Below are positions 42,998 through 58,906 of a DNA stretch of 64,000 nucleotides, one piece after another. The stretch covers positions 2,254,895 to 2,318,894 of the forward strand of contig CP147779.1 in assembly GCA_037308085.1 (NCBI GenBank), written 5' to 3'. Numbering within the stretch: the stretch's first letter is position 1; every line of letters starts with the position of its first letter. The position numbers and the translations under genes are program-made. The notes under the pieces were generated by a model. It saw only the letters and a program-made list of their open reading frames with translations. It ran no database searches and had not been told where the DNA came from. Source of the stretch: Promethearchaeati archaeon SRVP18_Atabeyarchaeia-1. Its GTDB lineage: Archaea > Asgardarchaeota > Atabeyarchaeia > Atabeyarchaeales > Atabeyarchaeaceae.

Positions 42998-43639
42998 CTA
43001 CTCTATTGAGATCACCACGTCCTCAGGCGCGACCGACTGACCAGCCGACACTTTGACCTCCTTGACTTTGCCGGTATAGGGCGACGTTATTTCGTTGGCC
43101 ATCTTCATGGCTTCGAGGATCAGGACTACTTCTCCTGCCTTTACCGCGTCGCCTTCTTTGACTCTAACGGAGATTATCTTTCCAGGCATAGGGGGTCTTA
43201 TGATCTTGCCACCCGTACTTGCCACTCTTGCAGACGGTTTGGGCGCTTGCCCTTCTGCCCCCGCGCCAGCGCCTGCAGTGGTCGCTCTCGCCTCTGAAGC
43301 AGATGTCTGAGTCCCTGCCATGGTGTCAACTCTGATCCGAAAAGGGGCCTCGTTGATTCTCACGTTCAGTGTTTTCCCGTTCTGGACGTTTCTGTCCCCC
43401 AGTAAGACCTTATACTCTTTCTCATTGACTTTCAGCTTCATTGCTCCGCTGTTCTCGTCCCTTTCAGTGATAGCTACCGAGAACACTTTGCCATCAATGT
43501 CCACTGTCACCGTCGAAGCGTTTGGCTGTAAATTCGGTTGCTTGACATTCACATCGTGCGTCCTGTCGTCGACCGTCATTTTGAATCTCAATGCTTTTTC
43601 AGCCTCCGAAAGTTGACTTGTCCTCTCCACTTCTCTCAT
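42998..43639 (-). CDS. biotin carboxyl carrier (biotinyl/lipoyl-attachment) subunit
   Basis: 213 aa. C-terminal biotinyl domain with 'LILEAMKMANEI' preceded by an Ala/Gly/Pro-rich linker. The start overlaps the upstream 5S gene stop (ATGA), implying translational coupling. Confidence 0.8.
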   Translation of the reverse strand: MREVERTSQLSEAEKALRFKMTVDDRTHDVNVKQPNLQPNASTVTVDIDGKVFSVAITERDENSGAMKLKVNEKEYKVLLGDRNVQNGKTLNVRINEAPFRIRVDTMAGTQTSASEARATTAGAGAGAEGQAPKPSARVASTGGKIIRPPMPGKIISVRVKEGDAVKAGEVVLILEAMKMANEITSPYTGKVKEVKVSAGQSVAPEDVVISIE

Positions 43640-45165
43640 AATGTGGTTCTTGATCTTATGAGGTCCTGACGTCCAGCTAGAGCCCAGGGGCTTATGCCAG
43701 TTGAAGACTTTCTCGCAAGTTTCGGTTCCAGCCCTGAAACTGGGTTCCTATTATTCGTTAGCCGGTCTGCAATTGTCGCCGCGACGGCTGCCAAAGCGTT
43801 ATCGCTACTATTCAGTCCGTTATCTTTCAACTCTCTCATTTCGAAAAACCCTAACGCCACTTGGGGAAACAGTACGAAGGACAGGATGTCTTCCTCGCTC
43901 CTAGCCTTTGCTCCCAGCTCCTTCCGCGCCTTCTCGAATTCCGGCTTGAGCAAGTCAGCGGGTCTACAAGTTATCGGGTCCTCGTTACCGATAACCTTCT
44001 TCTTCACCTCTTCATCAATTGGTGATGGAGGAGCGCCATAGTACCCCTTGACATACTGCTTCACCTCATTGGGGATAACCTTGTAACGTTCTCCGACGAC
44101 TACGTTTAGCACTGCTTGGGTTCCGACTATCTGCGACGTTGGGGTTACAAGAGGAGGATAGCCAAGCTCTCTTCTCACTATAGGAACCTCCTTGAGGACC
44201 TCGCCGAGCTTGCCAAGCGCATTTTGCTCCCTTAGCTGATTGACAAGATTTGTGGTCATGCCGCCAGGTATCTGGTATACGAGCACGTTTGTATCCACGC
44301 CAGGTAGAGTGCTTTCGAACTTCGAGTACTTCTTTCTGATCTCAGCAAAGTAGTCAGCTATCTCATTGAGGAGCGCGAGATCCAAACCGGTGTCTCTGGG
44401 AGTGCCCTTAGCCATGTACACGATTGTCTCAGTTGGGGGTTGAGAAGTGGCCAGCGACATTGAGGATATCGCTGTGTCAATAATGTCGACACCCGCGCCT
44501 ATTGCCTCCCAGCATGTTCCGACCGCCATTCCACTTGTGCAGTGAGTGTGCAAGTGGATGGGAAGGTCGATCTCCCTCTTGAGACCCTCGATTAGCGCTC
44601 TGGCTTCTCCAGGAGAGAGAAGACCAGCCATGTCTTTGATGCATATAGTGTCCGCGTCTAGTTCCATGAGCTTCTTCGCGAAGTTGACAAAAAGGTTCAC
44701 GTCGTGAACAGGGCTAATAGTATAGGATAGCGCGCCTTCAACCTTTGCTCCAGCCTTCTTAGCCGCCTTCATTGCCTTCTCAAGGTTACGAATGTCGTTG
44801 ACCGCATCGAAAACCCTGAAGACATCTATTCCGTTCTGGGCCGCCTTTGAGACGAATTTCTCCACCACGTCATCTGGATAGTGTCGGTATCCAACTATGT
44901 TCTGCCCACGCAGCAGCATCTGCATCTGAGTGTTCGGCATCGCCTTCCGTAGGCGCCGCAAGCGTTCCCATGGATCTTCATTTAGGAATCTTAGACATGT
45001 GTCGAAGGTTGCTCCGCCCCACATCTCGAGTGACCAGTAGCCTACTTGGTCAAGCTTCTCCGCTACGGGCAACATGTCTTCAGTCCTCATGCGGGTCGCC
45101 AGCAGGGACTGGTGGGCGTCTCTCAGAACAGTGTCAGTTATTCTCAGGGGTGAGCCTGTAGCCAA
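43636..45165 (-). CDS. 5S-type carboxyltransferase (pyruvate carboxylase subunit B / oxaloacetate decarboxylase alpha-like) lacking a biotinyl domain
   Basis: 509 aa. 'RITDTVLRDAHQSLLATRM' TIM-barrel carboxyltransferase N-terminus and 'HLHTHCTSGMA'. No AMKM motif at the C-terminus. Confidence 0.8.
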   Translation of the reverse strand: MATGSPLRITDTVLRDAHQSLLATRMRTEDMLPVAEKLDQVGYWSLEMWGGATFDTCLRFLNEDPWERLRRLRKAMPNTQMQMLLRGQNIVGYRHYPDDVVEKFVSKAAQNGIDVFRVFDAVNDIRNLEKAMKAAKKAGAKVEGALSYTISPVHDVNLFVNFAKKLMELDADTICIKDMAGLLSPGEARALIEGLKREIDLPIHLHTHCTSGMAVGTCWEAIGAGVDIIDTAISSMSLATSQPPTETIVYMAKGTPRDTGLDLALLNEIADYFAEIRKKYSKFESTLPGVDTNVLVYQIPGGMTTNLVNQLREQNALGKLGEVLKEVPIVRRELGYPPLVTPTSQIVGTQAVLNVVVGERYKVIPNEVKQYVKGYYGAPPSPIDEEVKKKVIGNEDPITCRPADLLKPEFEKARKELGAKARSEEDILSFVLFPQVALGFFEMRELKDNGLNSSDNALAAVAATIADRLTNNRNPVSGLEPKLARKSSTGISPWALAGRQDLIRSRTTL

Positions 45166-45354
45166 GATGATCCACCTCTAGTAAACAGAAAGACGTTGCG
45201 ATCCAAGTCAAACTCATCGGAAGTTCAAGAGAAAGTAGGAGATTACTTGTGTTATTTATATCTTTAGCAGCAGATCAAGTCACATTGATGACGCAGACTT
45301 CGTCAATTCTCATGCTCTAGCTTAATAAGACAGCTCCAGGAATCACAAATACCT

Positions 45355-45642
45355 ATGAAAGCATACAAATGCTCCCAATGCGGAGGCGAGATGTGTGCCT
45401 CGACGGGGCCGCTTCACCCAATGGAGGCCATTGCCGAAGATATGCTGGAGCAGGGAGTAATCTTCCGGTGTTCTGGCTGCTCTTTGTATTTGACAAGCGC
45501 ATCTGGCATCGAATGCCCGACGTGTGGGAGGAAGACGCTGACTGCATCACTCGATGAGAGTCCTAAACGCGGCTCGCCAAATGCGAGGAAAGCAACTGGA
45601 GCGGTTACATGCCAGTCTTGCGGTTGGCGGCAGAAACTATGA
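45355..45642 (+). CDS. small zinc-ribbon protein (four CxxC pairs), hypothetical
   Basis: 95 aa: 'CSQCGG', 'CSGCS', 'CPTCGR', 'CQSCG'. Lies between the two carboxyltransferase genes on the opposite strand. Confidence 0.3.
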   Translation: MKAYKCSQCGGEMCASTGPLHPMEAIAEDMLEQGVIFRCSGCSLYLTSASGIECPTCGRKTLTASLDESPKRGSPNARKATGAVTCQSCGWRQKL

Positions 45643-45703
45643 TTATTGCGGATGTGAAGCTTCCGGCGTTCCTCGTCCATATTCTGGAGGCAGTGGGGGA
45701 GTG

Positions 45704-47257
45704 TCAAAGAGGTATGTTGCCGTGTTTTCTTGCAGGTCGGCTCGTCCTCTTGTTTACGAGCGTCTCCAGTGCATTGATCAACCTCGGCCTAGTTTCCTTT
45801 GGCTCTATGACGTCGTCTATGTAACCCCTTTCCGCGGTTATGTAGGGGTTTGCAAATTTCTCGCGGTACTCTTTCACAAGTCGCTCTCTTTCTTTCGCGG
45901 GATCTCCGGCCTTTTCGATTTCCTTTCTGAATATGATGTTGACAGCACCGTCAGGACCCATGACAGCGAGTTCTGCTCCTGGCCAAGCAACATTGTAGTC
46001 GGCCCCCACGTTTTTTGAATTTAGTACGTCAAAGGCTCCACCGTAGGCCTTGCGGGTTATCACTGTAAGTCTTGGCACCGTGGCTTCACAAAACGCGTAA
46101 AGCAACTTTGATCCGTGCCTGATTATGCCACCGTGTTCTTGAATAGTTCCTGGCAGGAATCCTGGGACATCGACGAAAGTGAGAATGGGTATGTTGAAGC
46201 AGTCACAGAACCTGACGAATCTTGCACCTTTCGTAGAGGAATCAATGTCCAGCGTTCCAGCGAGGAACTTCGGGTTGTTTCCAACTATTCCGATAGGTCT
46301 CCCGCCGAGCCTGCCAAAACCGATTATAATGTTCTGCGCCCACAATGGTTGAACCTCTAGGAACTCTCCATTATCAACGATATGTCTGACAACATCTCGC
46401 ATATCGTACGGCTTGTTGGGGTCAACGGGCACTATGTGATTCAGCTCTTCGTCCACCCTGTTCGGGTCATCACCAGTCTCGACAATTGGTGGATCCTCCA
46501 TGTTGTTGGAAGGTATGTAGCTGAGTAGCTTCCTGACTATGTCGAAGCACTCTTCCTCCGAGTTCGCGGAGAAGTGGGCGACTCCACTCTTCTGCATATG
46601 CACGGGAGCTCCCCCCAGCTGCTCCGATGTGACCTCCTCCTTTGTAACCGATTTCACGACATCGGGCCCTGTTATGTGCATGTATGATATCTTGTCCACC
46701 ATGACTATGAAGTCAGTCATCGCCGGTGAATAGACTGCACCACCAGCGCATGGTCCCATAATAGCTGAGATCTGTGGAATCACGCCAGAACTCAGCACAT
46801 TCCTATAGAAGATGTCAGCATAGCCTACTAGACTTGAGACACCCTCCTGTATCCTCGCACCTGCGCCATCATTCAAGCCTATGAGGGGAGCGCCGTTTCT
46901 GGCCGCCAAGTCCATTATTTTGCAGACCTTCTGGGCGAAAGCCTCCCCAAGAGAACCGCCAAAAACGGTGAAATCCTGTGAGAAGATATACACCAGTCTG
47001 CCGCTTATTCTCCCCCATCCAGTGATGACGGCGTCGCCGAGAGGCCTGTTCTTTTCGGCTCCAAACATCATTGACTGATGTCTGACGAAGGGATCTACTT
47101 CTACGAAGCTTCCCTCGTCCAGTAGCTTCTCGACCCTCTCTCGGGCAGTAAGTTTCCCCGATTCGTGCTGCTTATCGAAGCGCCCTTTTCCCCCGCCAAG
47201 TTTACTTTGTTCCCTCATTTCCTTGAGCTTCTTTATCTTATCCTCCATGGTAGACAT
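45704..47257 (-). CDS. 12S-type carboxyltransferase (propionyl-CoA carboxylase beta / methylmalonyl-CoA decarboxylase alpha family)
   Basis: 517 aa, two crotonase-like CT domains ('[20 protein letters not shown]', '[35 protein letters not shown]'). Confidence 0.85.
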
Positions 47258-47339
47258 CCTGCAACGTCACACCCCAATATGCGAATCTCGACGATCAGAA
47301 TGAATGGCAGTCGTACAAACGTGGATATTCAACACCGAC

Positions 47340-48314
47340 CTAGTGAGGTAATTTCTTCACTTTGCCCTTTATATTCTTTCTCGTTTTCGTCGCCAAGTGA
47401 ATGCAGTCCCCCGACAGAATGGTGATCTCCTTCGCATTCCTTGTTCTCAGGATCAGGCCACCCCCAGGTGATATTCCTCTTCCAGTTCCCTCGTAAGTTG
47501 CCCCTTCACATTCTAATCTCACATCTGAACCAATGGTTGTGCACAGTCCCTCGTATTCTGACCAAAGCTCTTTGTCTTCTCCCCTTAAGAACAGGTCGTA
47601 ATGGGTGTCCATCGTTTTCAGAATGCCGGCTATCAAGTCGTCTATTGATACGTTCTGTCTGACAAGTTTCCTTACTGATGTGGCTTCTGTCTTTAATCCT
47701 CGCGGCAGAGAGTCAGGATCAGTATTGGCGTTTATTCCTATACCAACGACCACGAACAGAGGCGTTTCACCTTGAAAGGTGCCTTCAGCTAGTATGCCGC
47801 AGATCTTCCTCTCCCCGACAAGAACGTCATTAGGCCACTTTAGCACGGCATCAATGGCGTAGAGCGTCCTCAGGGACTTGGCTACGGACAAGCCAGCAAG
47901 CAGAGTTAGCTTCTGAAGGGGGCGAATAGATGGGGGTCTCAATATGACAGACATCCAGACTCCGCCACGAGGAGAAAACCATTCCCTACCAAGTCGCCCT
48001 CTCCCAGCGCTCTGTGAGCCAGCAATTATGACGGTTCCTTCGGCTGCGCCCTCATCTGCCATCTTCTTGGCTTCATCGTTGGTTGATGAGGTCTCATCCA
48101 GATAGACCATTTCTCCTCCAATGATGCGCGTATGAAGGATTCGCCTTATGTTCTCGACCGATACGTTATCCTTAGCGGAGTTGCGCGCAAGGTTCTTGTC
48201 AATTCGCCTCAACGTGGAATCACACGCCCATCTCAAGACGATTGGTGTTAGGATACATAGATATGACATTGGTTTCTCTGGACCATCGAGAGATGTGGCA
48301 ATCGCCTCCTTCAC
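47340..48314 (-). CDS. birA: bifunctional biotin-[acetyl-CoA-carboxylase] ligase / HTH regulator
   Basis: 324 aa. N-terminal HTH, catalytic 'GRGRLGREW' (GRGRxGRxW) motif, C-terminal SH3-like domain. Confidence 0.8.
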   Translation of the reverse strand: MKEAIATSLDGPEKPMSYLCILTPIVLRWACDSTLRRIDKNLARNSAKDNVSVENIRRILHTRIIGGEMVYLDETSSTNDEAKKMADEGAAEGTVIIAGSQSAGRGRLGREWFSPRGGVWMSVILRPPSIRPLQKLTLLAGLSVAKSLRTLYAIDAVLKWPNDVLVGERKICGILAEGTFQGETPLFVVVGIGINANTDPDSLPRGLKTEATSVRKLVRQNVSIDDLIAGILKTMDTHYDLFLRGEDKELWSEYEGLCTTIGSDVRLECEGATYEGTGRGISPGGGLILRTRNAKEITILSGDCIHLATKTRKNIKGKVKKLPH

Positions 48315-48387
48315 AGACAGCCAAACTGCATGAGTGGATCCATTACGGTTCTTATGAAGAACCTGGGAAATTTGCTCTAGATTTTGA

Positions 48388-48792
48388 TTACTTCTTCGGT
48401 GTGCTTAGTTCGAGTAGGACACCATGCATGCTCTTTGGGTGAACGAAGGCTATCTTGTTTCCATCTGCTCCGATCCTTGGCTTCTTATCTATCAGTTCGA
48501 CTCCTGACTTGCTTAGCTTTGCCAACATCTTGTCTATATCATCGACTTCCAGGGATATGTGGTGGATCCCTTCACCCCGCTTGGCAATGAACCGACCTAT
48601 GGGACCTTCCGGGTCTGTCGACTCCATGAGCTCTATTCTTGATTCGCCGATCGGGATCATTGCAGATTTCACTTTCTGCTCATCAACTGTCTCAATGCCA
48701 GATACTCTTAGACCAAGAACATCTGAATACAACTTTATTGCCTCATTCATGTTGTTAACGGCGACGCCAATATGACTGATCTTCTTGAACAT
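48388..48792 (-). CDS. methylmalonyl-CoA epimerase (VOC family)
   Basis: 134 aa. 'HIGVAVNNMNEAIKLY' and 'GIHHISLEVDDID' metal-binding modules of the glyoxalase-fold MCE. Confidence 0.75.
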   Translation of the reverse strand: MFKKISHIGVAVNNMNEAIKLYSDVLGLRVSGIETVDEQKVKSAMIPIGESRIELMESTDPEGPIGRFIAKRGEGIHHISLEVDDIDKMLAKLSKSGVELIDKKPRIGADGNKIAFVHPKSMHGVLLELSTPKK

Positions 48793-48947
48793 ACACTTCT
48801 CGACCTCCTAGTAGCTTGACGGGGTAAGCACCTTCGGGGTTGAGAGTCCAATAGAAGAGATTTGATATAAGAATCTATTTAGAGTGGAATCATCGGCTTC
48901 CAGTTCGGGAGAATTCCCTATGTGACTGCGCCTTTGGAAGTGCCCAC

Positions 48948-49484
48948 TTAACCTGGGTTGAAGTCAGCACGGGAGTCGAGTTCCGTTCTTCTCAGCATTA
49001 ATGCAGATGTAACCGGGCAAAGCTCTTTGAATTCGGTGGTGTCCCGTATCGGCGCCGGCGCTCTGTTTCGTTTGACTTTATGGAAGCCCAATTGAGCGAA
49101 GAACCGCTCCGCTGAGGTCGTTAGTAGATAGAGTTCTTTTACTCCAACCAGTTCAGCGTTCTCTGTGAGCTCATGAACAAGCGCTTTACCGTAGCCTTTT
49201 CCACGAATCGACTCCTCGACTACCACCGAGCGAAGGAGACCCACGTTCCCGTATACCTCCAATCCACCTATTCCTATAACCTTGGAATGAGCGTATGCAA
49301 CAAACATTGAACCAGCTTTCTGGGAGATATCTTCGAACGGCAGATTGCTGGATTTGAGTAGCTCCTTAATCATAGGAAGATCCAGCCCAGTCGCCTGCCT
49401 TAGCCTTATTTCAACGCTCATACCTTGCACGCTCCTTCCGCCAAGATGCCTACGGTGAGAACTTGGACGCAATAGTGTGATCAT
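48948..49484 (-). CDS. GNAT-family N-acetyltransferase
   Basis: ORF 178 aa (probable start at internal 'MSVEIRLRQ'). 'VVVEESIRGKGYGKALVHEL' acetyl-CoA binding motif. Confidence 0.65.
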   Translation of the reverse strand: MITLLRPSSHRRHLGGRSVQGMSVEIRLRQATGLDLPMIKELLKSSNLPFEDISQKAGSMFVAYAHSKVIGIGGLEVYGNVGLLRSVVVEESIRGKGYGKALVHELTENAELVGVKELYLLTTSAERFFAQLGFHKVKRNRAPAPIRDTTEFKELCPVTSALMLRRTELDSRADFNPG

Positions 49485-49618
49485 GGTAGATAAGGGATTT
49501 GCTCAACAAAGTGAGTGCGGGTCACTTGGGAACAACAATATCCAACGGTAAGCATGTACTGGGAGACAGAACCCTAAAATACACCTTCTCTAGTGCCTAT
49601 AATGCTAGAGGAGATCCC

Positions 49619-50056
49619 ATGAAAGCAGAAAAGATGACGGAAACAGAGCTACTCAAGAAATACTTCATGCACGGAATATTCTTCTCGGTTCTAATGGACG
49701 TCATAGCAATCGGATGGGTTGTCCTCCTGGTCTTTCTAGTAGGCTTTGGCTTCTATATCGGTTTGACAATAGGGTTAGCCTTGCTCTTCATCTTCATGGG
49801 TGCAGTAAACGCCTTCGTAACAAGCAACGTCTGGAATGTCCGTATGCACGCAAACTGGGGATCAGACCTTGTGCATGGCTTCTTTCTTTTCCTCGTATTG
49901 TTCGTCATATCTCTGCCAGCTACAGCCATAGGCAATTTCCTCTTGCCATCCACCAACCCCGCTTCAGTGTTTGTCAAATTCGCTGTTCAGACGATAATTC
50001 TGGCATTTGTCTACGGCTTTGCGGCCAAGGCAGTGGCCGGCACTTGGATCGAATAA
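49619..50056 (+). CDS. small polytopic membrane protein, hypothetical
   Basis: ATG 49619 is preceded by 'gaggag' and a TATA-like 'tataatgc'. About 4 TM helices. The track ORF starts at 49499. Confidence 0.4.
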   Translation: MKAEKMTETELLKKYFMHGIFFSVLMDVIAIGWVVLLVFLVGFGFYIGLTIGLALLFIFMGAVNAFVTSNVWNVRMHANWGSDLVHGFFLFLVLFVISLPATAIGNFLLPSTNPASVFVKFAVQTIILAFVYGFAAKAVAGTWIE

Positions 50057-50304
50057 GGCAATGCCCCGTTCTCGTACCAGGGGCGTAAGCTGCAGACTAG
50101 ACCCCTTAGAGCGACAGATCCCCCCAGACAGGAAGGTTGAGTAAGAAAGAAGACAGTTAATCTTAGTCCCAGCATGTAATTGTGCCAGTTTATTGTCTCT
50201 ATTGAGGCACTCGGTTTAGGCAATCCGATGAGCCAGCATGGCAACAGGGCCATGGAGAAACTCCCAGCGCTGGGCATGGCGCGTCTATTCGGAGACCCCA
50301 CTTT

Positions 50305-52002
50305 TCAGATTATCTCCGGTGCCCTGTACTCTCCATAGACCTCCCTGAGGGCGTCGCATATTTCTCCATTTGTTGCGCACTTTCTTACCGCTTCAATGAT
50401 TGCAGGCATTAGATTTTCGTTGCCCTGCGCCAGTTCCCGTATCTTCTCGAGGGCCTTTTTAGCCTCTTCGTTGTGTCGTTTGGCTTTGAAAGCTTTTAGT
50501 CTCTTCTTCTGTCGTTCCTCCACTTCAGGCTTGACGCGGAGCACCTCCCACGAGAGTTCTTCCTCGATTGCATACTCATTCACGCCGACAATAATGCGGC
50601 CCTTGCTCTCAACTTCCTTCTGGAACCTGTATGCGCTGCTGAGGATCTCCTTCTGCGGATATCCCCTCTCGATGGCCGGAATCATTCCACCCATGTCGTC
50701 GATCTTCTTCATGTAGTCCATTGCCTGACTCTCAATTTCGTTTGTCAAGCTTTCGATGTAGAATGATCCTGCCAGTGGATCAATGGTATTTGTGACTCCG
50801 CCTTCGCTAGCAATTATCTGCTGTGTTCTCAGAGCTATTCTGACTGCTTTTTCAGATGGCAATGCGAGGGCTTCGTCCATAGAGTTGGTATGCAGCGATT
50901 GTGTCCCTCCGAGAACGGATGCCAGCGCTTGAAGTGTTACGCGAACTATGTTGTTCTCCGGTTGCTGCGCCGTGAGGGTCACACCACCCGTCTGTGTGTG
51001 GAATCGGAGCATCATTGACTCGGGGTTCTGTGCCTTAAACCTCTCTTTCATGATCTTAGCCCAAAGCCTTCTCGCGGCTCGGAACTTCGCGACCTCCTCA
51101 AGGAGGTCCATGTGTGATGCGAAGAAGAATGATAATCTCGGCGCGAAAGTGTCAACTTTCAGACCTCGTGATGTGGCGGCATCGACGTAGGCTATTCCAT
51201 CCGCCAAGGTGAATGCAACTTCCTGAACCGCTGTCGCGCCAGCTTCGCGAATATGGTAGCCGCTGATGCTTATGGTATTCCATTTTGGCACGTGCTTGAA
51301 GCAGTAATCAACTATGTCTATTGCGAGTCTCATGGAAGGCTTAGGCGGGAAAATATACGTTCCCCTTGCGATATATTCCTTGAGGACATCGTTCTGAACT
51401 GTTCCTTGAAGAACAGATTCGTCTGCGCCCTGTTTCTCAGCCGTAACTATGTAGAGGGCAAGGATCACGGGAGCCGAGGAATTGATGGTCATGGATGTGC
51501 TGACTTTGCTCAGAGGAATTCCATTGAAAAGGGTCTCCATATCCTCGATGCTGTTTATGGATACGCCTACCTTGCCTACCTCACCGTACGAGAGTTCGTG
51601 ATCCGAGTCGTAACCTATCTGGGTTGGAAGGTCAAAAGCCACGCTAAGCCCTGTCTGCCCTTCCTTCAGCAGGTATTTGAATCGCTGGTTTGTCTCCTCA
51701 GCCGACCCGAAGCCGGCGTATTGCCGCATAGTCCAAAAGCGGCCCCTATACATTGTTGGGTAAACACCTCGGGTTGCCGGGAATTCTCCGGGAAACCCAA
51801 GTTCATGTATGTAATCGGTGCTCCCGACATCCGAGAGAGTATACAGCCTCTTGACGGGTATGTTCGAGGATGATAGGAACTCTTTCTTGCGCTCAGGCGC
51901 TTTCTTCGTGTACTTTGAGAGGGTTGTCTGCTCCCACTTCTTCCGAGCCGCTTCAGTCTCATCGACTTTCTTCTCGTCGTACAAGTGCATTGTTCCCTCC
52001 AA
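50305..52002 (-). CDS. methylmalonyl-CoA mutase, large (catalytic, substrate-binding) subunit
   Basis: 565 aa. '[65 protein letters not shown]' is highly characteristic of the MCM N-terminal barrel. Confidence 0.9.
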
Positions 52003-52009
52003 GAGACTG

Positions 52010-52447
52010 CTATTCTCCTTTCCTGATCCTTTTCCTTAGGTACTCAACGAGGGTGCTCGTTGGTGTCCCTGGCCCAAACACCTCGTCGACGCCCATCTTC
52101 TTCAGCTCTGGGATGTCACTCTTGGGTATGATCCCTCCTCCCCATACCAGCATGTCTCCAGCGCCCTCCTTTCTCAGGAGCTCTATGACCTTCTTGAAGT
52201 AGTGTTTGTGGGTGCCGGAGAGTATGCTTAACCCTATAGCGTCAACGTCTTCTTGAACCGCGGATTTGACGATCTTCTCTGGTGTCTGCCTTATTCCAGT
52301 GTAGATGACCTCCATTCCCGCGTCTCTGAGAGCGAGGGACACAACCTTGGCTCCCCGATCGTGACCATCCAAACCGGGTTTTGCTATCAGGACTCTAATC
52401 TTTGCCTTATTTGCGCTTTCGGCCATGCTGATCAGCCTCAACGACAA
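52010..52447 (-). CDS. methylmalonyl-CoA mutase, small B12-binding subunit
   Basis: 145 aa. '[10 protein letters not shown]' cobalamin-binding DxHxxG motif. 8 bp from the large-subunit gene. Confidence 0.9.
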
Positions 52448-52575: not shown

Positions 52576-53874
52576 TCAATGACCCAAGTCACCCAATGAG
52601 AGTAGCGGTTCTCCTATTCCCTCTTGATTCTGCCTCTCTTTCTCTATTGCCTTGCGCAGGTTTGTATTCCCGCCATAGTTGAAGATGCCGAGTAATTTGA
52701 TTGCGTTCCGATACTCTTCCTCGGCCTGTTTATCATTTCCCGAGAGTCTCATTAGTCGGGCAATGTTTATGTAGCTCATTATATTGTCCCTGAACAGGAG
52801 TATTGAATTCCTGAACCTCTCAAGCGCGTTCTCTTTGTTTCCCAGATTGAACTCCTTTCCCCCCTGGCAGAAAAGGCGATCTGACAGTCTCTTTAGAACT
52901 TCCTCCGAAAATGATCCTGCCTCTTCTTCTCCAGCAGCTTCTCTGCTCTGCGTAGATTCTCCGGAAAGAGTATCGAGGATAGATTTTCCTTTTGATGAAA
53001 TGGCTTTGTATAGTGCCTGTTTCCCCATATCGCGGACGAGTCTGAATGTCTCTTTCTGTTTTCCTGGCATCACTGGCATTGTTTTGAATACTCTGACCAT
53101 TTTCCCTGTGAAGCCGGCCTTTTCGATTTCAGTGAAGACTTCGTGCAAGTTGGGGAACCTTTGCAATAGTCCGATGAGACAGAGCGCAACTCGGGGGCTG
53201 TAAACTCCGAGTTCGACTGCAACTTCTGCTGCCTCTATTTCTGTAATATCCCCAAGACTATTGTGTTCGACCATCTTGGAGGTCAAGAAGTCGATCGAAT
53301 TCTCTAAATCGAGTGTCTCATTCTCGTTTGAGACGTCGATGGCGCACTCCCTATTAAGATTCTTTCTGAAAGATGCCATAAACTGAAGTGGCCAATATCG
53401 CTCTGGTTTAATAGAAGTGACTCTAAGAGTGGGTCGGTTCTTTTCCACCGTGAATGATTCTTGTCTGATGTTTTCAAAGCCGGTTTTTCTCAAGAGGTCT
53501 ACAATCAGGTTTCTCGGAAAGCAAAAAATGTGCCTCATGCCAATAGAGCCCAGTCCGTATATCCACACTAGGAGATCGCTCTTGTCTTTCTCGCCGGCTT
53601 TGGTGAAAAGCCTAAAGGCGGCTTCAATGTCAGGAGTTTCTACTAGGAGGCAGCCGCTTGGCTTCAGAACTCTGAACCATTCGCTTAGCGCGTAAATCGA
53701 CTTGGCGAATCCCAGATGCTCGATTACTTGGCATGCATCAATTCTTTCGACACTATTGTCCTGGTACCTGAGGTCTGCTGCGTCCTGTATCTCGTCAGCA
53801 ACGATGTCGTCGTATGCATCCACATTGACGTAGCCCTTCTTGTATACCCTGCCACAGCCCAAGTTGATTCTCAT
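52576..53874 (-). CDS. class-I SAM-dependent methyltransferase fused to C-terminal TPR repeats
   Basis: 432 aa. 'LGCGRV...VDAYDD...LKPSGCLLVETPD' (Methyltransf_11-like). C-terminal TPR-like helices. 15 bp downstream of the small paralog gene. Confidence 0.65.
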   Translation of the reverse strand: MRINLGCGRVYKKGYVNVDAYDDIVADEIQDAADLRYQDNSVERIDACQVIEHLGFAKSIYALSEWFRVLKPSGCLLVETPDIEAAFRLFTKAGEKDKSDLLVWIYGLGSIGMRHIFCFPRNLIVDLLRKTGFENIRQESFTVEKNRPTLRVTSIKPERYWPLQFMASFRKNLNRECAIDVSNENETLDLENSIDFLTSKMVEHNSLGDITEIEAAEVAVELGVYSPRVALCLIGLLQRFPNLHEVFTEIEKAGFTGKMVRVFKTMPVMPGKQKETFRLVRDMGKQALYKAISSKGKSILDTLSGESTQSREAAGEEEAGSFSEEVLKRLSDRLFCQGGKEFNLGNKENALERFRNSILLFRDNIMSYINIARLMRLSGNDKQAEEEYRNAIKLLGIFNYGGNTNLRKAIEKERQNQEGIGEPLLSLGDLGH

Positions 53875-53889
53875 GGATCAAGCTATGTC

Positions 53890-54246
53890 TCAGGAACGAA
53901 ATATCCTTTTCTTCAAGTCTCTCTTGGTCGTAACACTGTACATCGGCTGTACTCCTCCAGGGGGAATGGGGTGACCGTAAAGGCCAGATGGTTGTGTAGG
54001 GGGATTGCCAGTCAGAAGGAAGAGAAATAGCGCCGCGATGAAGATCTCGACGGGGAAGAAGATGTACCAGTACTTCGTGACCAGAAGCTTCACGCCTGAA
54101 GAAGTTCCTCTCCTGTAAAGCCTTTCAACGTCATTCTTGTCAAGTCCTATAAGGCTGCCCGCAGCATAGATATCAGAAAGATCCGGTTTCTCGGGAGCCG
54201 CGTTTTCCTTCAGCAACTCCTTCATAACTCGCGCATATACACCCAT
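53890..54246 (-). CDS. single-pass membrane protein, paralog 1 of a tandem pair in the rSAM operon
   Basis: 118 aa. Conserved N-terminal module 'EKPDLSDIYAAGSLIGLDKNDVERLYRRG', one TM, a Pro/Ser/Tyr-rich tail, and conserved 'RDLKKR' near the C-terminus. Confidence 0.55.
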   Translation of the reverse strand: MGVYARVMKELLKENAAPEKPDLSDIYAAGSLIGLDKNDVERLYRRGTSSGVKLLVTKYWYIFFPVEIFIAALFLFLLTGNPPTQPSGLYGHPIPPGGVQPMYSVTTKRDLKKRIFRS

Positions 54247-54303
54247 TTAGTACCCTCACCTGCTGATTGTTCATACGGATTCGCTTCGCCCTCTTAGCAA
54301 CTA

Positions 54304-54654
54304 TCAAGTTAAGAGAGATTTCTTCTTGAGGTCTGCTCTGCTAATAACATTGTACCTTGCGCCAGAGGGGTATACCTGAGACGGATTAGATGGAGGGCTT
54401 CCAGATAACGCGTACGCAAGCAAAATAGCGAGGGCGGCTACGACGATTATGATCGGCAGGAAAATCCACGGTCGCTTGGCAAGAACGGTTCTCACCCTCG
54501 AAGAAGCAGGTCCCCGGTGGATTCTGGCTATGTCTTCCTTGTCTAGACCTAGTAGGCTCCCAGCGGCACTGATTTCTGCAATGTCGGGTTTTTCAATTGG
54601 CTTGGAACCCGAAAGGATTTCCCCTAAAATGTGCTTGCTGCTGTTCAAACTCAA
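54304..54654 (-). CDS. single-pass membrane protein, paralog 2 of the tandem pair in the rSAM operon
   Basis: 116 aa. 'EKPDIAEISAAGSLLGLDKEDIARIHRG', one TM, tail 'SGSPPSNPSQVYPSGARYNV', and 'ADLKKK'. Clear paralogy to 53890..54246. Confidence 0.55.
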   Translation of the reverse strand: MSLNSSKHILGEILSGSKPIEKPDIAEISAAGSLLGLDKEDIARIHRGPASSRVRTVLAKRPWIFLPIIIVVAALAILLAYALSGSPPSNPSQVYPSGARYNVISRADLKKKSLLT

Positions 54655-54687
54655 CCCTCCTCAAACCTAATTGCGGTCAGACCGTAT

Positions 54688-55731
54688 TTAGCCCTTTCTC
54701 ATGTCCGACTCTATCCTATAGTAACAGTAGGCATTCTCCCTTCTCTTTGCAGTATTGTACGCCACTGAGAGGCAGCCTCCCCTGCAGATCGCTGCATGGG
54801 GACATGTGCGACAGAAACCAGACAGGGAGGATTCTTTGAACCGCCGGTTGTAGGCGAAGGAATCTGCGTCATTCCAGAGGTTGACAAGTCCCCGCTCCCT
54901 GACATTCCCCTCGATGAAGTCGTCAGGCAATGCGAGGCAGCCCTTTACATTTCCGTTGCTTTGAATGCCTAAGTTTGTGATTCCTGCCTGGCAGCCATTC
55001 CAGTCGCCGACTCCTCGGAATGGTATCACGCTCGAGTAGTAGCCAGAGTCGTGAGCGCCTGCCACTGGCATATCTTTTAAGCTATGCTTCTTTCTCAGCG
55101 ATGCCATGAACAAGCCGACAGAGTAGAATTCCAGTGGGGACAACATGTACTCCTCGCTGAATCTGCCAAAAGGTGATGCCATTTGAATCTGCCAGACAAT
55201 ATCCTTTTTCAGTATCATGTGCCCGATCTCGGGAAGTTCCCTGAAGTTGAGTTTGTGTACTGCCGTGATAATACTCACTGGTAGCTTCTTGTCCTTTAGT
55301 AAGCTAAGGGCTTTGACAGATTTTGTGAATGATCCCTTCGCACTCCGTATGTGGTCGTGTGTGCCCGGGTTTGAGCCATCAATGCTTATTCCTACTGCGT
55401 CCGGTTCGAGCTTTGATATTTGAGTCGCCATTCTCTCATCGATCATAAGTCCATTCGAGACGATTGAGAGGCTCATCCGCAGCCGCTTAACCTCTTCAGC
55501 AATTTCAAACCAGTCGTCTCGAAGGAAAACCTCTCCGCCAATTAACGCGACTCCTCCACAACCGATCTTCTTAAGGTCGCTACACAGCCTTATCGATTCC
55601 TCCGTCGTCAGTTCATCTGGTCTCGCTTTTCCAGCGGAGGAACCGCAGTGGAGGCATCTCATGTTACACTTCAGGGTTACCTCCCAGACTGCACAAGCAG
55701 GAGCGTACACGTTCCCTCTCTCCATCTTCAT
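54688..55731 (-). CDS. radical SAM enzyme with C-terminal SPASM domain (peptide/protein-modifying maturase type)
   Basis: CxxxCxxC 'CNMRCLHC', 'GGEVFL', and C-terminal 'GFCRTCPHAAICRGGCLSVAY' SPASM cysteines. Start chosen at 'MKMERG' (55731). The track ORF extends to 55848 through an AT-rich promoter-like stretch. Confidence 0.8.
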   Translation of the reverse strand: MKMERGNVYAPACAVWEVTLKCNMRCLHCGSSAGKARPDELTTEESIRLCSDLKKIGCGGVALIGGEVFLRDDWFEIAEEVKRLRMSLSIVSNGLMIDERMATQISKLEPDAVGISIDGSNPGTHDHIRSAKGSFTKSVKALSLLKDKKLPVSIITAVHKLNFRELPEIGHMILKKDIVWQIQMASPFGRFSEEYMLSPLEFYSVGLFMASLRKKHSLKDMPVAGAHDSGYYSSVIPFRGVGDWNGCQAGITNLGIQSNGNVKGCLALPDDFIEGNVRERGLVNLWNDADSFAYNRRFKESSLSGFCRTCPHAAICRGGCLSVAYNTAKRRENAYCYYRIESDMRKG

Positions 55732-55895
55732 GAATCTGAAACAAGCAGACGGTACCTTATCTCCTTTTTGGGGAACAGAGATCTGAGCGACTCTGTCTCT
55801 TACTTGGAGAAAGAGATATAGATAGATATTTGTCGTGTACGTGAGCATATCTATACTGGCGTTCCGGATTGTGGGATCTCGAGGTGACGGGTTGA

Positions 55896-57585: not shown

Positions 57586-58497
57586 CTAATTGGTTTTCCG
57601 CTTCAGCTTCTCTTTGGTCAGTCTTCTATTGTCCTCAGCCAGTTTGAATGCGGGATCCATCTTCAGCGCGTTGTCATAGCACCGTATTGCCTCACTGAGA
57701 TCACCGAGTTCGTCAAAGGCAACACCCATATTGTACCAAGCGTTGCTGTCTTGAGGCTCTATTTTGAGGGATTCATAGAGACTACTCGTTGCCTCTTTGA
57801 ACCTGCCTAGCTTGTTGAGGAGCAGACCCCTGTCACGCCAGGCGTCGGCATTCTTTGGCTGCATTCTAGTCGCTTGGTCTAAACTTTCCATCGCTTGATC
57901 ATACCAGCCAAGGCTAAACAGGGCACTGCCTTTGCCGTACAATGCTTTATCGTCTTTCGGGTTTGCTTTGAGCATGTGGTCGTAACACTCTAGTGCTTCG
58001 TTGAAGGAGCCACGCATAGCAAAGGCGACACCTTTGTTGTACCATGCGTCCTTGTTTTCCGGTTCTATTCTCAGCACTTGGTTGAAGCTGGCTATGGCTT
58101 CTTTCGTCATGCCAAGCTTCATGAGAGCAAGGCCTCTATGGTGCCAAGTGGTCGCGTCCACCGCCCTCAATTTGAGAGATCTGTCGAAGCATTCCAAGGC
58201 TTCTTTGAACCTGCCGAGTTTGCTGAACTCTATGCCATTCTTAAGCCACTCGGTAGCCTCTTTCTCCTGTCTGGACGATTCTGGCAAGAATGCGCCTCCT
58301 GTAATTCGAGATCTTGTTGGGGTTCGCACTATCTCTGTATTGATGCCGTCGGCGAAGAGAATATTAATTAGTAGAGAATCAGTCCTTAGTCTTGCGGGCT
58401 TTCTTAATGCCTTCCCCCTGGTACCTTCCATTGTAGGCTGAACTCGCTTCCATCGCGTCTGTGACGACAAATTGGAACCAGCGCTCATTTTCCGCAA
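57586..58497 (-). CDS. TPR-repeat protein (true start probably downstream of 58497)
   Basis: At least 6 TPR units ('AWYNKGVAFAMRGSFNEALECYDHMLKANP'). The N-terminal about 40 codons overlap the upstream dCD-like gene and are probably not translated. Confidence 0.6.
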   Translation of the reverse strand: MRKMSAGSNLSSQTRWKRVQPTMEGTRGKALRKPARLRTDSLLINILFADGINTEIVRTPTRSRITGGAFLPESSRQEKEATEWLKNGIEFSKLGRFKEALECFDRSLKLRAVDATTWHHRGLALMKLGMTKEAIASFNQVLRIEPENKDAWYNKGVAFAMRGSFNEALECYDHMLKANPKDDKALYGKGSALFSLGWYDQAMESLDQATRMQPKNADAWRDRGLLLNKLGRFKEATSSLYESLKIEPQDSNAWYNMGVAFDELGDLSEAIRCYDNALKMDPAFKLAEDNRRLTKEKLKRKTN

Positions 58498-58906
58498 TTC
58501 TCAGTTCCTTTATCGGTATGTAGACCGTCTGCACTCCGATGCCTTCGTAGCCGGGGTCGAAGACCGCCGTCTCAGACTTTATGACTCCAAGCCGGTTCAA
58601 TGTGCTTCTCGGAAAGGAGAGCCCTATTGCATTGATCGGTATCCTGACGGCAACGTTGAGGCGAGCCTCATATACGCCTCGTTTGAGTGAGTACAACCCG
58701 TTCTGCGGCTTGCATGAGATTTTCGGCATATCCAGTTCTCTGCGCTCACCATCAAGTGTGGCGGTAGCATTGTCTTCTATTCGATCAACATTTGAGACCC
58801 CAATGTCGACTCCACAAGGGTTTATCTTTATTCCTTGCAGGCGATCCCTGTTCGCCTCTACCACCTTCAGAACCTCTTTGTAGATCCTTTGACCTGACCA
58901 GAACAT
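58379..58906 (-). CDS. dUTPase/dCTP-deaminase-superfamily protein
   Basis: 175 aa. 'AVFDPGYEGIGVQTVYIPIKELRIAENERWFQFVV' resembles the 'IDxGYxG...RIAQLV' beta-barrel motif of Dcd/Dut. Tentative. Confidence 0.45.
   Translation of the reverse strand: MFWSGQRIYKEVLKVVEANRDRLQGIKINPCGVDIGVSNVDRIEDNATATLDGERRELDMPKISCKPQNGLYSLKRGVYEARLNVAVRIPINAIGLSFPRSTLNRLGVIKSETAVFDPGYEGIGVQTVYIPIKELRIAENERWFQFVVTDAMEASSAYNGRYQGEGIKKARKTKD

Follow-up and report, generated by a model that had tools for sequence, protein, structure and literature searches.

A candidate maturation cassette for ribosomal precursors, encoding a radical SAM/SPASM enzyme, small proteins with a membrane segment and a methyltransferase, in an Atabeyarchaeia genome

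What does a radical S-adenosylmethionine (SAM) enzyme of the SPASM type modify when the genes beside it encode two small, paralogous proteins with one hydrophobic segment each? The question is raised by four closely spaced genes in the Promethearchaeati archaeon SRVP18_Atabeyarchaeia-1. The stretch analyzed, called the window below, comprises 64,000 nucleotides of contig CP147779.1 (assembly GCA_037308085.1, positions 2,254,895 to 2,318,894 of the forward strand). A preliminary description had proposed an undescribed maturation system in which the enzyme acts on the tails of the small proteins. The analysis reported here suggests that the locus is probably a maturation cassette for ribosomal precursors, of the type known from peptides that are ribosomally synthesized and modified post-translationally (RiPPs), and that it is one instance of a large system found mostly in archaea. 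This reading is drawn from the operon-like spacing of the genes, the motifs of the enzymes, their co-occurrence with the small genes, the precursor logic of the small proteins and the predicted topology. No description of the system was found in the open-access literature, and it may be described elsewhere; the Atabeyarchaeia genome paper mentions neither radical SAM proteins nor RiPPs.

Gene organization

The genes and the segments recognized in them are given below by position in the window, with protein lengths in amino acids (aa). HMM stands for hidden Markov model, TM for transmembrane, AF2 for AlphaFold2 and pLDDT for the predicted local distance difference test.

54688-55731, minus strand: radical SAM/SPASM maturase, 347 aa counted from M40 of its open reading frame (ORF); PF04055 (Radical_SAM) 4e-25, PF13186 (SPASM) 5e-7; 100% match to NCBI protein P0002
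55645-55668, minus strand: CxxxCxxC motif CNMRCLHC (C22, C26, C29), ligands of the radical SAM [4Fe-4S] cluster; invariant in alignments of the enzyme
54724-54993, minus strand: SPASM region; seven Cys (C247, C265, C307, C310, C316, C320, C336) are invariant in a 47-sequence alignment; the Pfam SPASM match covers residues 286-350 of the 386-aa ORF
54304-54654, minus strand: putative precursor A, 116 aa, TTG start, with leader, TM segment, core and basic tail; 99% match to P0001; family HMM E 4e-13
54520-54594, minus strand: leader motif of precursor A, EKPDIAEISAAGSLLGLDKEDIARI; G32, G36, L37 and D41 nearly invariant; aligns to the family leader ykiGkeLGLskkEI
54409-54465, minus strand: hydrophobic segment of precursor A, IFLPIIIVVAALAILLAYA, predicted to be a TM segment or signal-anchor; mean Kyte-Doolittle value over 19 residues 2.89; basic residues mostly on the N-terminal flank
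54319-54372, minus strand: putative core of precursor A, YPSGARYNVISRADLKKK; Y101 is position 0 (near-invariant Tyr) and D108 is +7; fits the family logo of 141 cores
53890-54246, minus strand: putative precursor B, 118 aa, paralog of A (41% identity); family HMM E 5e-7; homolog P0122
54118-54192, minus strand: leader motif of precursor B, EKPDLSDIYAAGSLIGLDKNDVERL, in the shared N-terminal module
54007-54063, minus strand: hydrophobic segment of precursor B, IFFPVEIFIAALFLFLLTG; Kyte-Doolittle mean 2.33
53905-53979, minus strand: putative core of precursor B, YGHPIPPGGVQPMYSVTTKRDLKKR; its upstream YxxG element contains an insertion; same variant in P0122
52576-53874, minus strand: 432-aa protein that joins a SAM-dependent methyltransferase to a helical/TPR-like domain; Methyltransf_11 7e-5, weak TPR_2; AF2 model with pLDDT 91.6

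All four ORFs are on the minus strand, with successive gaps of 33, 57 and 15 bp, which is the operon-like arrangement first reported for the locus. The two small proteins proved to be paralogs as described (E 8e-28), with a common N-terminal module, one hydrophobic segment each and tails carrying the motif DLKK[KR]; the proteins end in ...DLKKKSLLT and ...DLKKRIFRS. They are real genes and not chance ORFs, since an HMM trained only on precursor sequences from unrelated genomes (L015-L093) retrieved exactly A and B among the 656 ORFs of the window, the next best having an E-value of 4.9. No second copy of any cassette component was found elsewhere in the window.

The full ORF of the radical SAM enzyme extends over 54688-55848 (386 aa). 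Because the query from K41 onward matches the 347-aa NCBI protein at 100%, the true start of the gene is most likely M40 (55731). The 39 codons in frame upstream of the annotated Met (55732-55848) have no equivalent in any homolog and are probably non-coding; an AT-rich stretch within them, ATATCTATCTATATC, could be an archaeal promoter element. The start of precursor A is preceded by GGAGG, and the NCBI version of this protein begins at the second TTG and has 114 aa.

The radical SAM enzyme

The CxxxCxxC motif and SPASM Cys cluster that had been read from the sequence were borne out by the Pfam matches listed above. C22-x3-C26-x2-C29 and the seven C-terminal Cys were invariant across 47 homologs, and seven SPASM Cys would be enough for two auxiliary clusters. 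Nothing beyond Radical_SAM, SPASM and Fer4_12 was detected in the Pfam scan of the enzyme. A Foldseek comparison of the AF2 model (pLDDT 91.7) placed it nearest to PqqE, SkfB, SuiB, anSME, CteB and ChlB (TM-scores near 0.7) and also to BlsE, and the closest solved relatives by sequence were SkfB (2e-19), PqqE and SuiB. In sequence and fold alike, the nearest relatives are mostly peptide maturases.

When the window enzyme and four members of its clade from different phyla were compared with the NCBIfam models, all scored far below every cutoff. For the window enzyme the scores were 141 bits against a cutoff of 500 for AhbD, 138 against 515 for NirJ, 84 against 381 for PqqE and 145 against 265 for MftC. 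The best models were TIGR04103 (230 against 725 bits) and TIGR03913 (213 against 591.75 bits). The same two came out on top for the Loki, Thermoplasmatales, Geobacter and Elusimicrobia members of the clade, on which TIGR03913 scored 176-200 bits. The preliminary description had allowed that the enzyme might prove to serve cofactor biosynthesis; it falls below the curated cutoff of every cofactor subfamily, and its nearest relatives are mostly peptide-maturing.

Distribution of the cassette

Relatives of the radical SAM enzyme are found in more than 1,500 protein clusters at E < 1e-20, a few of them 63-83% identical and a large cloud at about 50% identity and about 345 aa. Gene neighborhoods were sampled in the best 79 loci of the clade, on contigs from one genome per species: 40 Asgard, 26 Thermoplasmatota, 2 DPANN, 6 bacterial and 5 other archaeal loci, none with an enzyme more than 53% identical to that of the window. 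Precursors were detected by an HMM search of all ORFs of 30-200 aa in these loci, iterated three times. Members of the family were found next to the radical SAM gene in 70 of the 79 loci, with one to five small ORFs in each, and amounted to 160 unique sequences. A homolog of the methyltransferase-TPR protein was adjacent in 56-57 of the 79. Apart from precursors and extra radical SAM paralogs, it was the only strong recurrent neighbor; the next, a CapK/PaaK-like enzyme, was present in 12 loci.

The order seen in the window, radical SAM gene, one to three precursors and methyltransferase, was repeated in 24 of the 40 Asgard loci. On ten Atabeyarchaeia-like contigs (L001-L010), the radical SAM gene was accompanied by one to three small family members, and a radical SAM gene adjoined the relatives of the small proteins in every case in which the contig was long enough. 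Two of these contigs (L007 and L008) reproduce the window exactly in order, with the radical SAM gene, two small genes and a 431-aa methyltransferase-TPR gene followed by the mutase B12 subunit gene, and have 4-bp overlaps. Another (L010) has the radical SAM gene, one small gene and a methyltransferase homolog of 447 aa, and two more (L005 and L006) have the radical SAM gene, two small genes and the methyltransferase. The same cassette without the methyltransferase lies at the syntenic position of L001, with a second cassette a few genes off. In L011, the small ORF is upstream of the radical SAM gene and encodes the leader GHVLGLEETDV, a TM segment and the tail ...LYYTAISAKDF.... In L013, a 67-aa peptide without a TM segment ends in ...YYGSTSIRDF and is followed by two radical SAM paralogs and a 432-aa ortholog of the methyltransferase-TPR protein. 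The small ORFs of L011 and L013 had diverged beyond the reach of the initial small-protein profile, yet their relationship to the family is clear.

Conservation of the gene order, on which the preliminary description had made its case depend, was thus observed in other genomes. The N-terminal module likewise lies outside known families, as had been suspected: no Pfam or NCBIfam family or peptide model matched the small proteins, and relatives of these proteins stand beside the radical SAM clade in the 70 loci and in L001-L014.

A first impression that the family is rare and restricted to one lineage was rejected. It had come from a word-indexed search with precursor A, which returned only itself, and from a two-sequence HMMER profile, which returned about 17 true relatives among 1.84 billion representatives. 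The apparent rarity was an artefact of sensitivity, because the ORFs beside radical SAM homologs and the iterated profile revealed many relatives. The cassette is recurrent across many Asgard and Thermoplasmatota archaea and is widespread, not local.

Variation among the loci was also noted. Loci of the Thermoplasmatota type (L015, L017-L019, L022, L024-L026, L034, L035, L043, L054 and L067) carry two or three radical SAM paralogs. Several cores of this type have a Cys upstream of the Tyr (for example ...MYCSSYYGTISIKDF), and the CapK/PaaK-like adenylating enzyme of the 12 loci has about 461 aa. The paralogs, the core Cys and the CapK/PaaK-like enzyme hint at additional modification steps in these loci that the window lacks.

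The small proteins

The leader consensus of the family is [IF]Y+[IL]G+ELGL.K+EI, and the version in the window is I.AAGSL[LI]GLDK.D[IV]. Among the approximately 17 close relatives, the four residues of the N-terminal module noted in the feature list were near-invariant, and the tail contained a single near-invariant Tyr (Y101). A logo was calculated from 141 cores, which came from 134 of the 160 unique precursors and were picked out with a pattern that demanded Tyr at position 0. Upstream of it, Y was present at -6 in 96 cores, P at -5 in 62 and G at -3 in 112; downstream, D was present at +7 in 129 and F at +8 in 124. The remaining positions were occupied by S or G (+1), T or S (+2), V or I (+3), I (+5) and K or N (+6), giving the consensus YPxGxxY[SG]T[VI]xIKDF. 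Past +8 the protein either continues with a Lys-rich stretch or stops; 17 cores finish exactly at F, as is often the case in Thermoplasmatota. In its family-wide form the core reads Y-P-x-G-x-x-Y-[SGN]-[TV]-[IVT]-x-x-x-D-[FL], then Lys/Arg. Precursor A (QVYPSGARYNVISRADLKKK) fits it directly, and precursor B (...YGHPIPPGGVQPMYSVTTKRDLKKR) fits with the insertion in the upstream element.

Leader and core are conserved, and the stretch between them is variable or absent. A hydrophobic segment was missing from 44 of the 160 unique precursors (mostly from Thermoplasmatota), whereas 89 had one and 27 scored as having two. One leader is followed by two or three repeated cores in Thermoplasmatota peptides of L034, L043 and L054, and the entire leader-plus-core unit is repeated in L020 and L067. 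RiPP precursors are marked by the combination seen here: a leader and a C-terminal core that are both conserved, paralogs in tandem and variants with several cores. The tails had been singled out as the likely targets of modification; the family-wide core does lie in the tail, and its retention in the TM-less and multi-core variants is consistent with that role. The companion claim, that the substrates are membrane-anchored instead of leader-core peptides, stood in part. The hydrophobic segment is present in the window, but the small proteins are of the leader-core type, and the segment is optional and located between leader and core.

The 15 residues on either side of the TM segment were compared in the 89 single-segment members. 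Lys and Arg were more numerous on the N-terminal side in 78 (mean 3.0 vs. 1.0), and an orientation with the leader inside and the tail outside is therefore predicted. In two Geobacter precursors (L085:3448-3981 and L093:3505-3978), the leader is followed by ALALSVFAGSAHA and then GG, a Kunitz/BPTI domain (Pfam 5e-14) and the same C-terminal core (YPCGTRYFTVSIRDF), indicating that the core motif can be attached to a folded protein that is exported. Being rich in disulfides, a Kunitz domain is expected to lie outside the cytoplasm. Furthermore, a precursor from Elusimicrobiaceae has a lipobox-like LLAC after the leader. On the basis of the charge bias and these Kunitz and lipobox-like bacterial variants, the hydrophobic segment looks like an export signal or anchor, with the core ending outside. 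The archaeal precursors may be cleaved behind this segment; in precursor A one conceivable site follows AYA.

A subtype with two TM segments was observed in DPANN, Hodarchaeota and Hermodarchaeota (L028, L031, L040, L045, L070 and L072). In it the leader comes first, a GYPF/GYPY element lies between TM1 and TM2, and the motif [IKL]Y[GND]V[YF] is at the C terminus.

The methyltransferase-TPR protein

The fourth gene had been described as encoding a methyltransferase-TPR protein, and this assignment was upheld by the domain matches and the model. Methyltransf_11 is N-terminal, with motif I as INLGCG, and the weak TPR_2 match is C-terminal. The AF2 model has a Rossmann domain from residue 1 to about 160, then an all-helical region that ends in TPR-like repeats. 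The family comprises 57 full-length homolog clusters of about 430-450 aa, in which G6-C7-G8 of motif I, N17, D19, D27, E52 and H53 are invariant. No Pfam or NCBIfam model covers the protein as such, and a sequence search of the PDB gave only weak TPR and methyltransferase matches.

Proposed maturation pathway

The following course of events is proposed for the RiPP-type cassette. In the cytoplasm, the leader would dock the unfolded precursor onto the radical SAM enzyme and possibly also onto the helical/TPR domain of the methyltransferase. The radical SAM enzyme would then abstract a hydrogen atom from the core and install a modification centered on the near-invariant Tyr, most plausibly a carbon-carbon or carbon-oxygen cross-link from the Tyr to a neighboring residue. 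Candidates are a PqqE-like link from Tyr to an acidic residue, here Asp at +7, and a three-residue cyclophane. The methyltransferase would contribute a methyl group, which might go on the upstream YPxG element or close to it. Finally, the hydrophobic segment would insert with the N terminus in and the C terminus out, so that the modified tail would come to lie at the outer membrane face, still anchored or freed by cleavage of the signal-peptidase type.

As to the chemistry, a Tyr-centered cross-link, PqqE-like or a short cyclophane, is a tentative guess that has the odds somewhat against it; it is made because Tyr 0 and Asp +7 are the two near-invariant residues. A thioether is excluded for the window, since neither precursor A nor precursor B contains Cys. 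The presence of the methyltransferase showed a suggestive link to the upstream YxxG element of the core, which was found in 36 of 48 loci with the methyltransferase and in 2 of 9 without it (Fisher p = 0.004, uncorrected for phylogeny).

Several points weigh against this proposal. An RRE (RiPP recognition element), in the enzyme or in a partner, is common but not universal in radical SAM/SPASM RiPP systems. No N-terminal domain of that size was present in the sequence or AF2 model of the enzyme, which begins about 12 residues before the first core strand, and the proposal leaves unexplained how the leader would be read without one. No recurrent protease or transporter was found near the radical SAM gene in the 79 loci, so that release of a free peptide is unsupported. 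The window cores depart from the consensus: position +8 is L where the family has F, Lys is missing at +6, and B has the insertion in the YxxG element. A fold search with the methyltransferase-TPR model gave only generic class I methyltransferases (TMq about 0.25), from which the substrate atom cannot be inferred; the protein is not essential to the system, because 22 of the 79 loci have no methyltransferase; and its association with the YxxG element ignores phylogeny. A tail outside the cell requires the cytoplasmic enzymes to act before insertion, a timing that is assumed. Moreover, all of the functional steps are deduced from sequence.

Beyond the RiPP-type assignment itself, the possibility was considered that the cassette represents a new maturation class, largely of Asgard and Thermoplasmatota archaea. 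A cytoplasmic leader, a Tyr/Asp core on the other side of the membrane, a radical SAM/SPASM enzyme without an RRE and a dedicated methyltransferase would then yield a cross-linked Tyr motif, displayed on the membrane or exported, with a conserved physiological role (signal, metal or redox centre, surface structure) and not that of a strain-specific toxin. This wider claim is conceivable but is held with appreciably less confidence, and we would not expect all of it to hold. The features that are unusual are the split of leader and core by a membrane segment, the phylum-spanning core, the dedicated methyltransferase-TPR partner and the Asgard-rich archaeal range. To our knowledge, very few archaeal modified ribosomal peptides have been reported, and none has been characterized from Asgard archaea. 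The sharply conserved 15-residue core and its dedicated partner enzyme offer a well-defined target for new radical SAM chemistry. The leader-TM-core layout, if true, would be an unusual coupling of cytoplasmic modification to membrane display or export, and the phylum-spanning core points to a shared cellular function over an arms-race toxin. Many small Asgard ORFs now annotated as hypothetical also gain names and boundaries.

Alternative explanations

The alternative that survives best is a variant of the same proposal and concerns the fate of the product. The small proteins may be mature, permanently membrane-anchored proteins, on whose juxtamembrane tail the radical SAM enzyme and methyltransferase install a functional group such as a Tyr-derived redox or metal-binding centre. 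The core is conserved from Asgard archaea through Thermoplasmatota and DPANN to some bacteria, unlike the hypervariable cores of antimicrobial peptides, and the distance from the TM end to the Tyr is short (median 14.5 residues). The lack of a conserved protease or exporter nearby and the attachment of the Geobacter motif to a folded Kunitz domain also fit a protein that stays in place. However, the TM-less and multi-core variants resemble classical precursors of released peptides, and two to five paralogs arranged in tandem are a usual trait of RiPP precursors. Permanent anchoring is therefore regarded as possible but rather unlikely.

It was also considered whether the small proteins are accessory membrane proteins (anchors, helix-turn-helix-like regulators or immunity factors), with a cofactor or lipid as the substrate of the radical SAM enzyme. 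Read directly, the leader IGKELGLSKKEI resembles a helix-turn-helix hairpin; the enzyme without an RRE and its weak NCBIfam similarity to the AhbD/NirJ heme enzymes point the same way. Against this, all scores for cofactor families are far below cutoff, and no recurrent heme or lipid genes are found nearby. The N-terminal region of the Loki type, with about 32-40 residues, is too short for a DNA-binding domain. Furthermore, 44 of 160 members have no TM segment, some members have repeated C-terminal cores, and the C-terminal peptide motif is the most conserved part of the family, which makes a purely accessory role improbable.

That the small proteins are subunits resembling type IV pilins or archaellins, made with a class III signal peptide and modified by the neighboring enzymes, is very improbable: basic residues, a hydrophobic helix and a short Tyr tail superficially recall minimal pilins, but the N-terminal part has 32-60 residues with a conserved motif of its own, no [KR]-[GAS] cleavage motif directly precedes the hydrophobic stretch, there is no conserved Glu at +5, TM-less variants exist, and no recurrent prepilin peptidase or pilus assembly ATPase is found nearby.

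Comparison with known systems

The RiPP-type cassette appears to share the general features of radical SAM/SPASM RiPP systems except the RRE, and by score it would fall outside the named subfamilies that were checked. It resembles PqqE/PqqA of PQQ biosynthesis, where the enzyme forms a Glu-Tyr carbon-carbon cross-link, in the radical SAM core with a seven-Cys SPASM region, PqqE being the top Foldseek match (6c8v, E 1.5e-18), and in a small precursor with a conserved core Tyr and acidic residue; the core is conserved over taxa as in cofactor-type RiPPs. It differs in the low score with the PqqE model, in having no PqqD/RRE partner or pqqBCDF genes, and in the position of the acidic residue, which is 7 residues after the Tyr and not 4 before it as in PqqA. 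Its precursors have 60-130 aa, mostly with a TM segment, and it has the methyltransferase-TPR partner.

The streptide-type RaS-RiPP maturases SuiB and WgkB and the sactisynthases SkfB and CteB are among the top sequence and fold matches (the SkfB match given above; SuiB, TMq 0.76; WgkB model, 151 bits), and the leader-dependent modification of a short core encoded beside the enzyme gene would be common to them and the cassette. Here, however, the scores are far below cutoffs, there is no N-terminal RRE, no core Cys in the window and no conserved Trp or Lys pair, and the hosts are archaeal. The triceptide (three-residue cyclophane) maturase ChlB is likewise a radical SAM/SPASM enzyme and a fold match (9gmc/9gm3, TMq about 0.7, E about 1e-11) that acts on aromatic residues in short motifs, and the cassette core has two Tyr-x-x units. 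The window enzyme passed no family model (the triceptide families are XyeB, GrrM and FxsB), and the residue at +2 does not always have a C-beta that would suit such chemistry; the precursor architecture and the methyltransferase partner also differ from those of ChlB. The best-scoring models, TIGR04103 (nif11-class peptide radical SAM maturase 3) and TIGR03913 (GDL-motif peptide-associated), represent uncharacterized peptide-associated SPASM maturases, but they are longer (412 and 477 positions), and the cassette precursors have no Nif11 leader or NCBIfam peptide match.

An N-terminal Sec signal peptide is present on bufferin precursors. Bufferins and the cassette would share the modification, in the cytoplasm, of a precursor equipped with an export signal of its own. 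They differ in the enzyme, which in bufferins is a multinuclear non-heme iron-dependent oxidative (MNIO) enzyme and not a radical SAM enzyme, and in that the leader motif of the cassette precedes the hydrophobic segment, which in archaea is of TM length and may stay uncleaved. The bufferin family of MNIO-modified RiPPs is described in PMC12452194.

Other assignments were tried and rejected. For a sactipeptide or ranthipeptide, the precursors would need the Cys that A and B do not have, and the StsB, AlbA and SkfB models are far below cutoff. Mycofactocin was rejected on the MftC score and on tails that are not ...GVY. The heme and heme d1 enzymes (AhbC/AhbD, NirJ) scored 113-141 bits against cutoffs of 500-650, and the neighbors are the precursors, the methyltransferase and methylmalonyl-CoA mutase. 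The anSME motif (C/S)-x-(P/A)-x-R was absent from both tails on direct reading, and anSMEcpe was a fold match only, with 18% identity. Anti-sigma factors or helix-turn-helix regulators were considered for the small proteins and also rejected.

Neighboring genes

Divergently upstream of the cassette are genes for a ChrB_C protein, an FMN reductase and the archaeoflavoprotein AfpA, and 128 bp downstream on the same strand are the two subunit genes of methylmalonyl-CoA mutase. These flanking genes are functionally unrelated to the cassette. No tRNA genes were found in the window. At 57586-58906, a 303-aa protein is built of little else than TPR repeats (137 bits with a MamA-like model, cutoff 200), and its gene overlaps a 175-aa ORF at the 3' end of the latter; nothing was found to link it with the cassette, and in L002 the syntenic gene carries the label DCD (dCTP deaminase-like).

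The minus strand over 42998-52447 resembles a complete methylmalonyl-CoA pathway cluster, with a biotin carrier (42998-43639), an OadA/PycB-like carboxylase subunit (43636-45165), a carboxyltransferase (45704-47257), a biotin ligase (47340-48314), a glyoxalase-fold epimerase candidate (48388-48792) and the large and B12 subunits of the mutase (50305-52447). Only the mutase subunits were named from domain scans; the other names come from Pfam labels on syntenic genes of L001 and L002 and from the translations as read. The maturation cassette lies just upstream of the mutase genes in several relatives (L001, L007).

The second cassette of L001 (7084-9417; compare 48800-49500 in the window) has the order small, small, radical SAM, small and lies between a GNAT acetyltransferase gene and a NUDIX gene. 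Its cores are divergent (...Y[AG]V..K[DE]S[IV]R...FLFRG), and it is the only cassette in L002-L004. The GNAT gene is present in the window (48948-49484) with no second cassette beside it; no NUDIX gene was among the listed window ORFs of at least 90 aa in this stretch, although no search aimed at NUDIX was made. The GNAT and mutase genes are separated by a 185-aa ORF on the opposite, plus strand (49499-50056), whose product has several hydrophobic segments.

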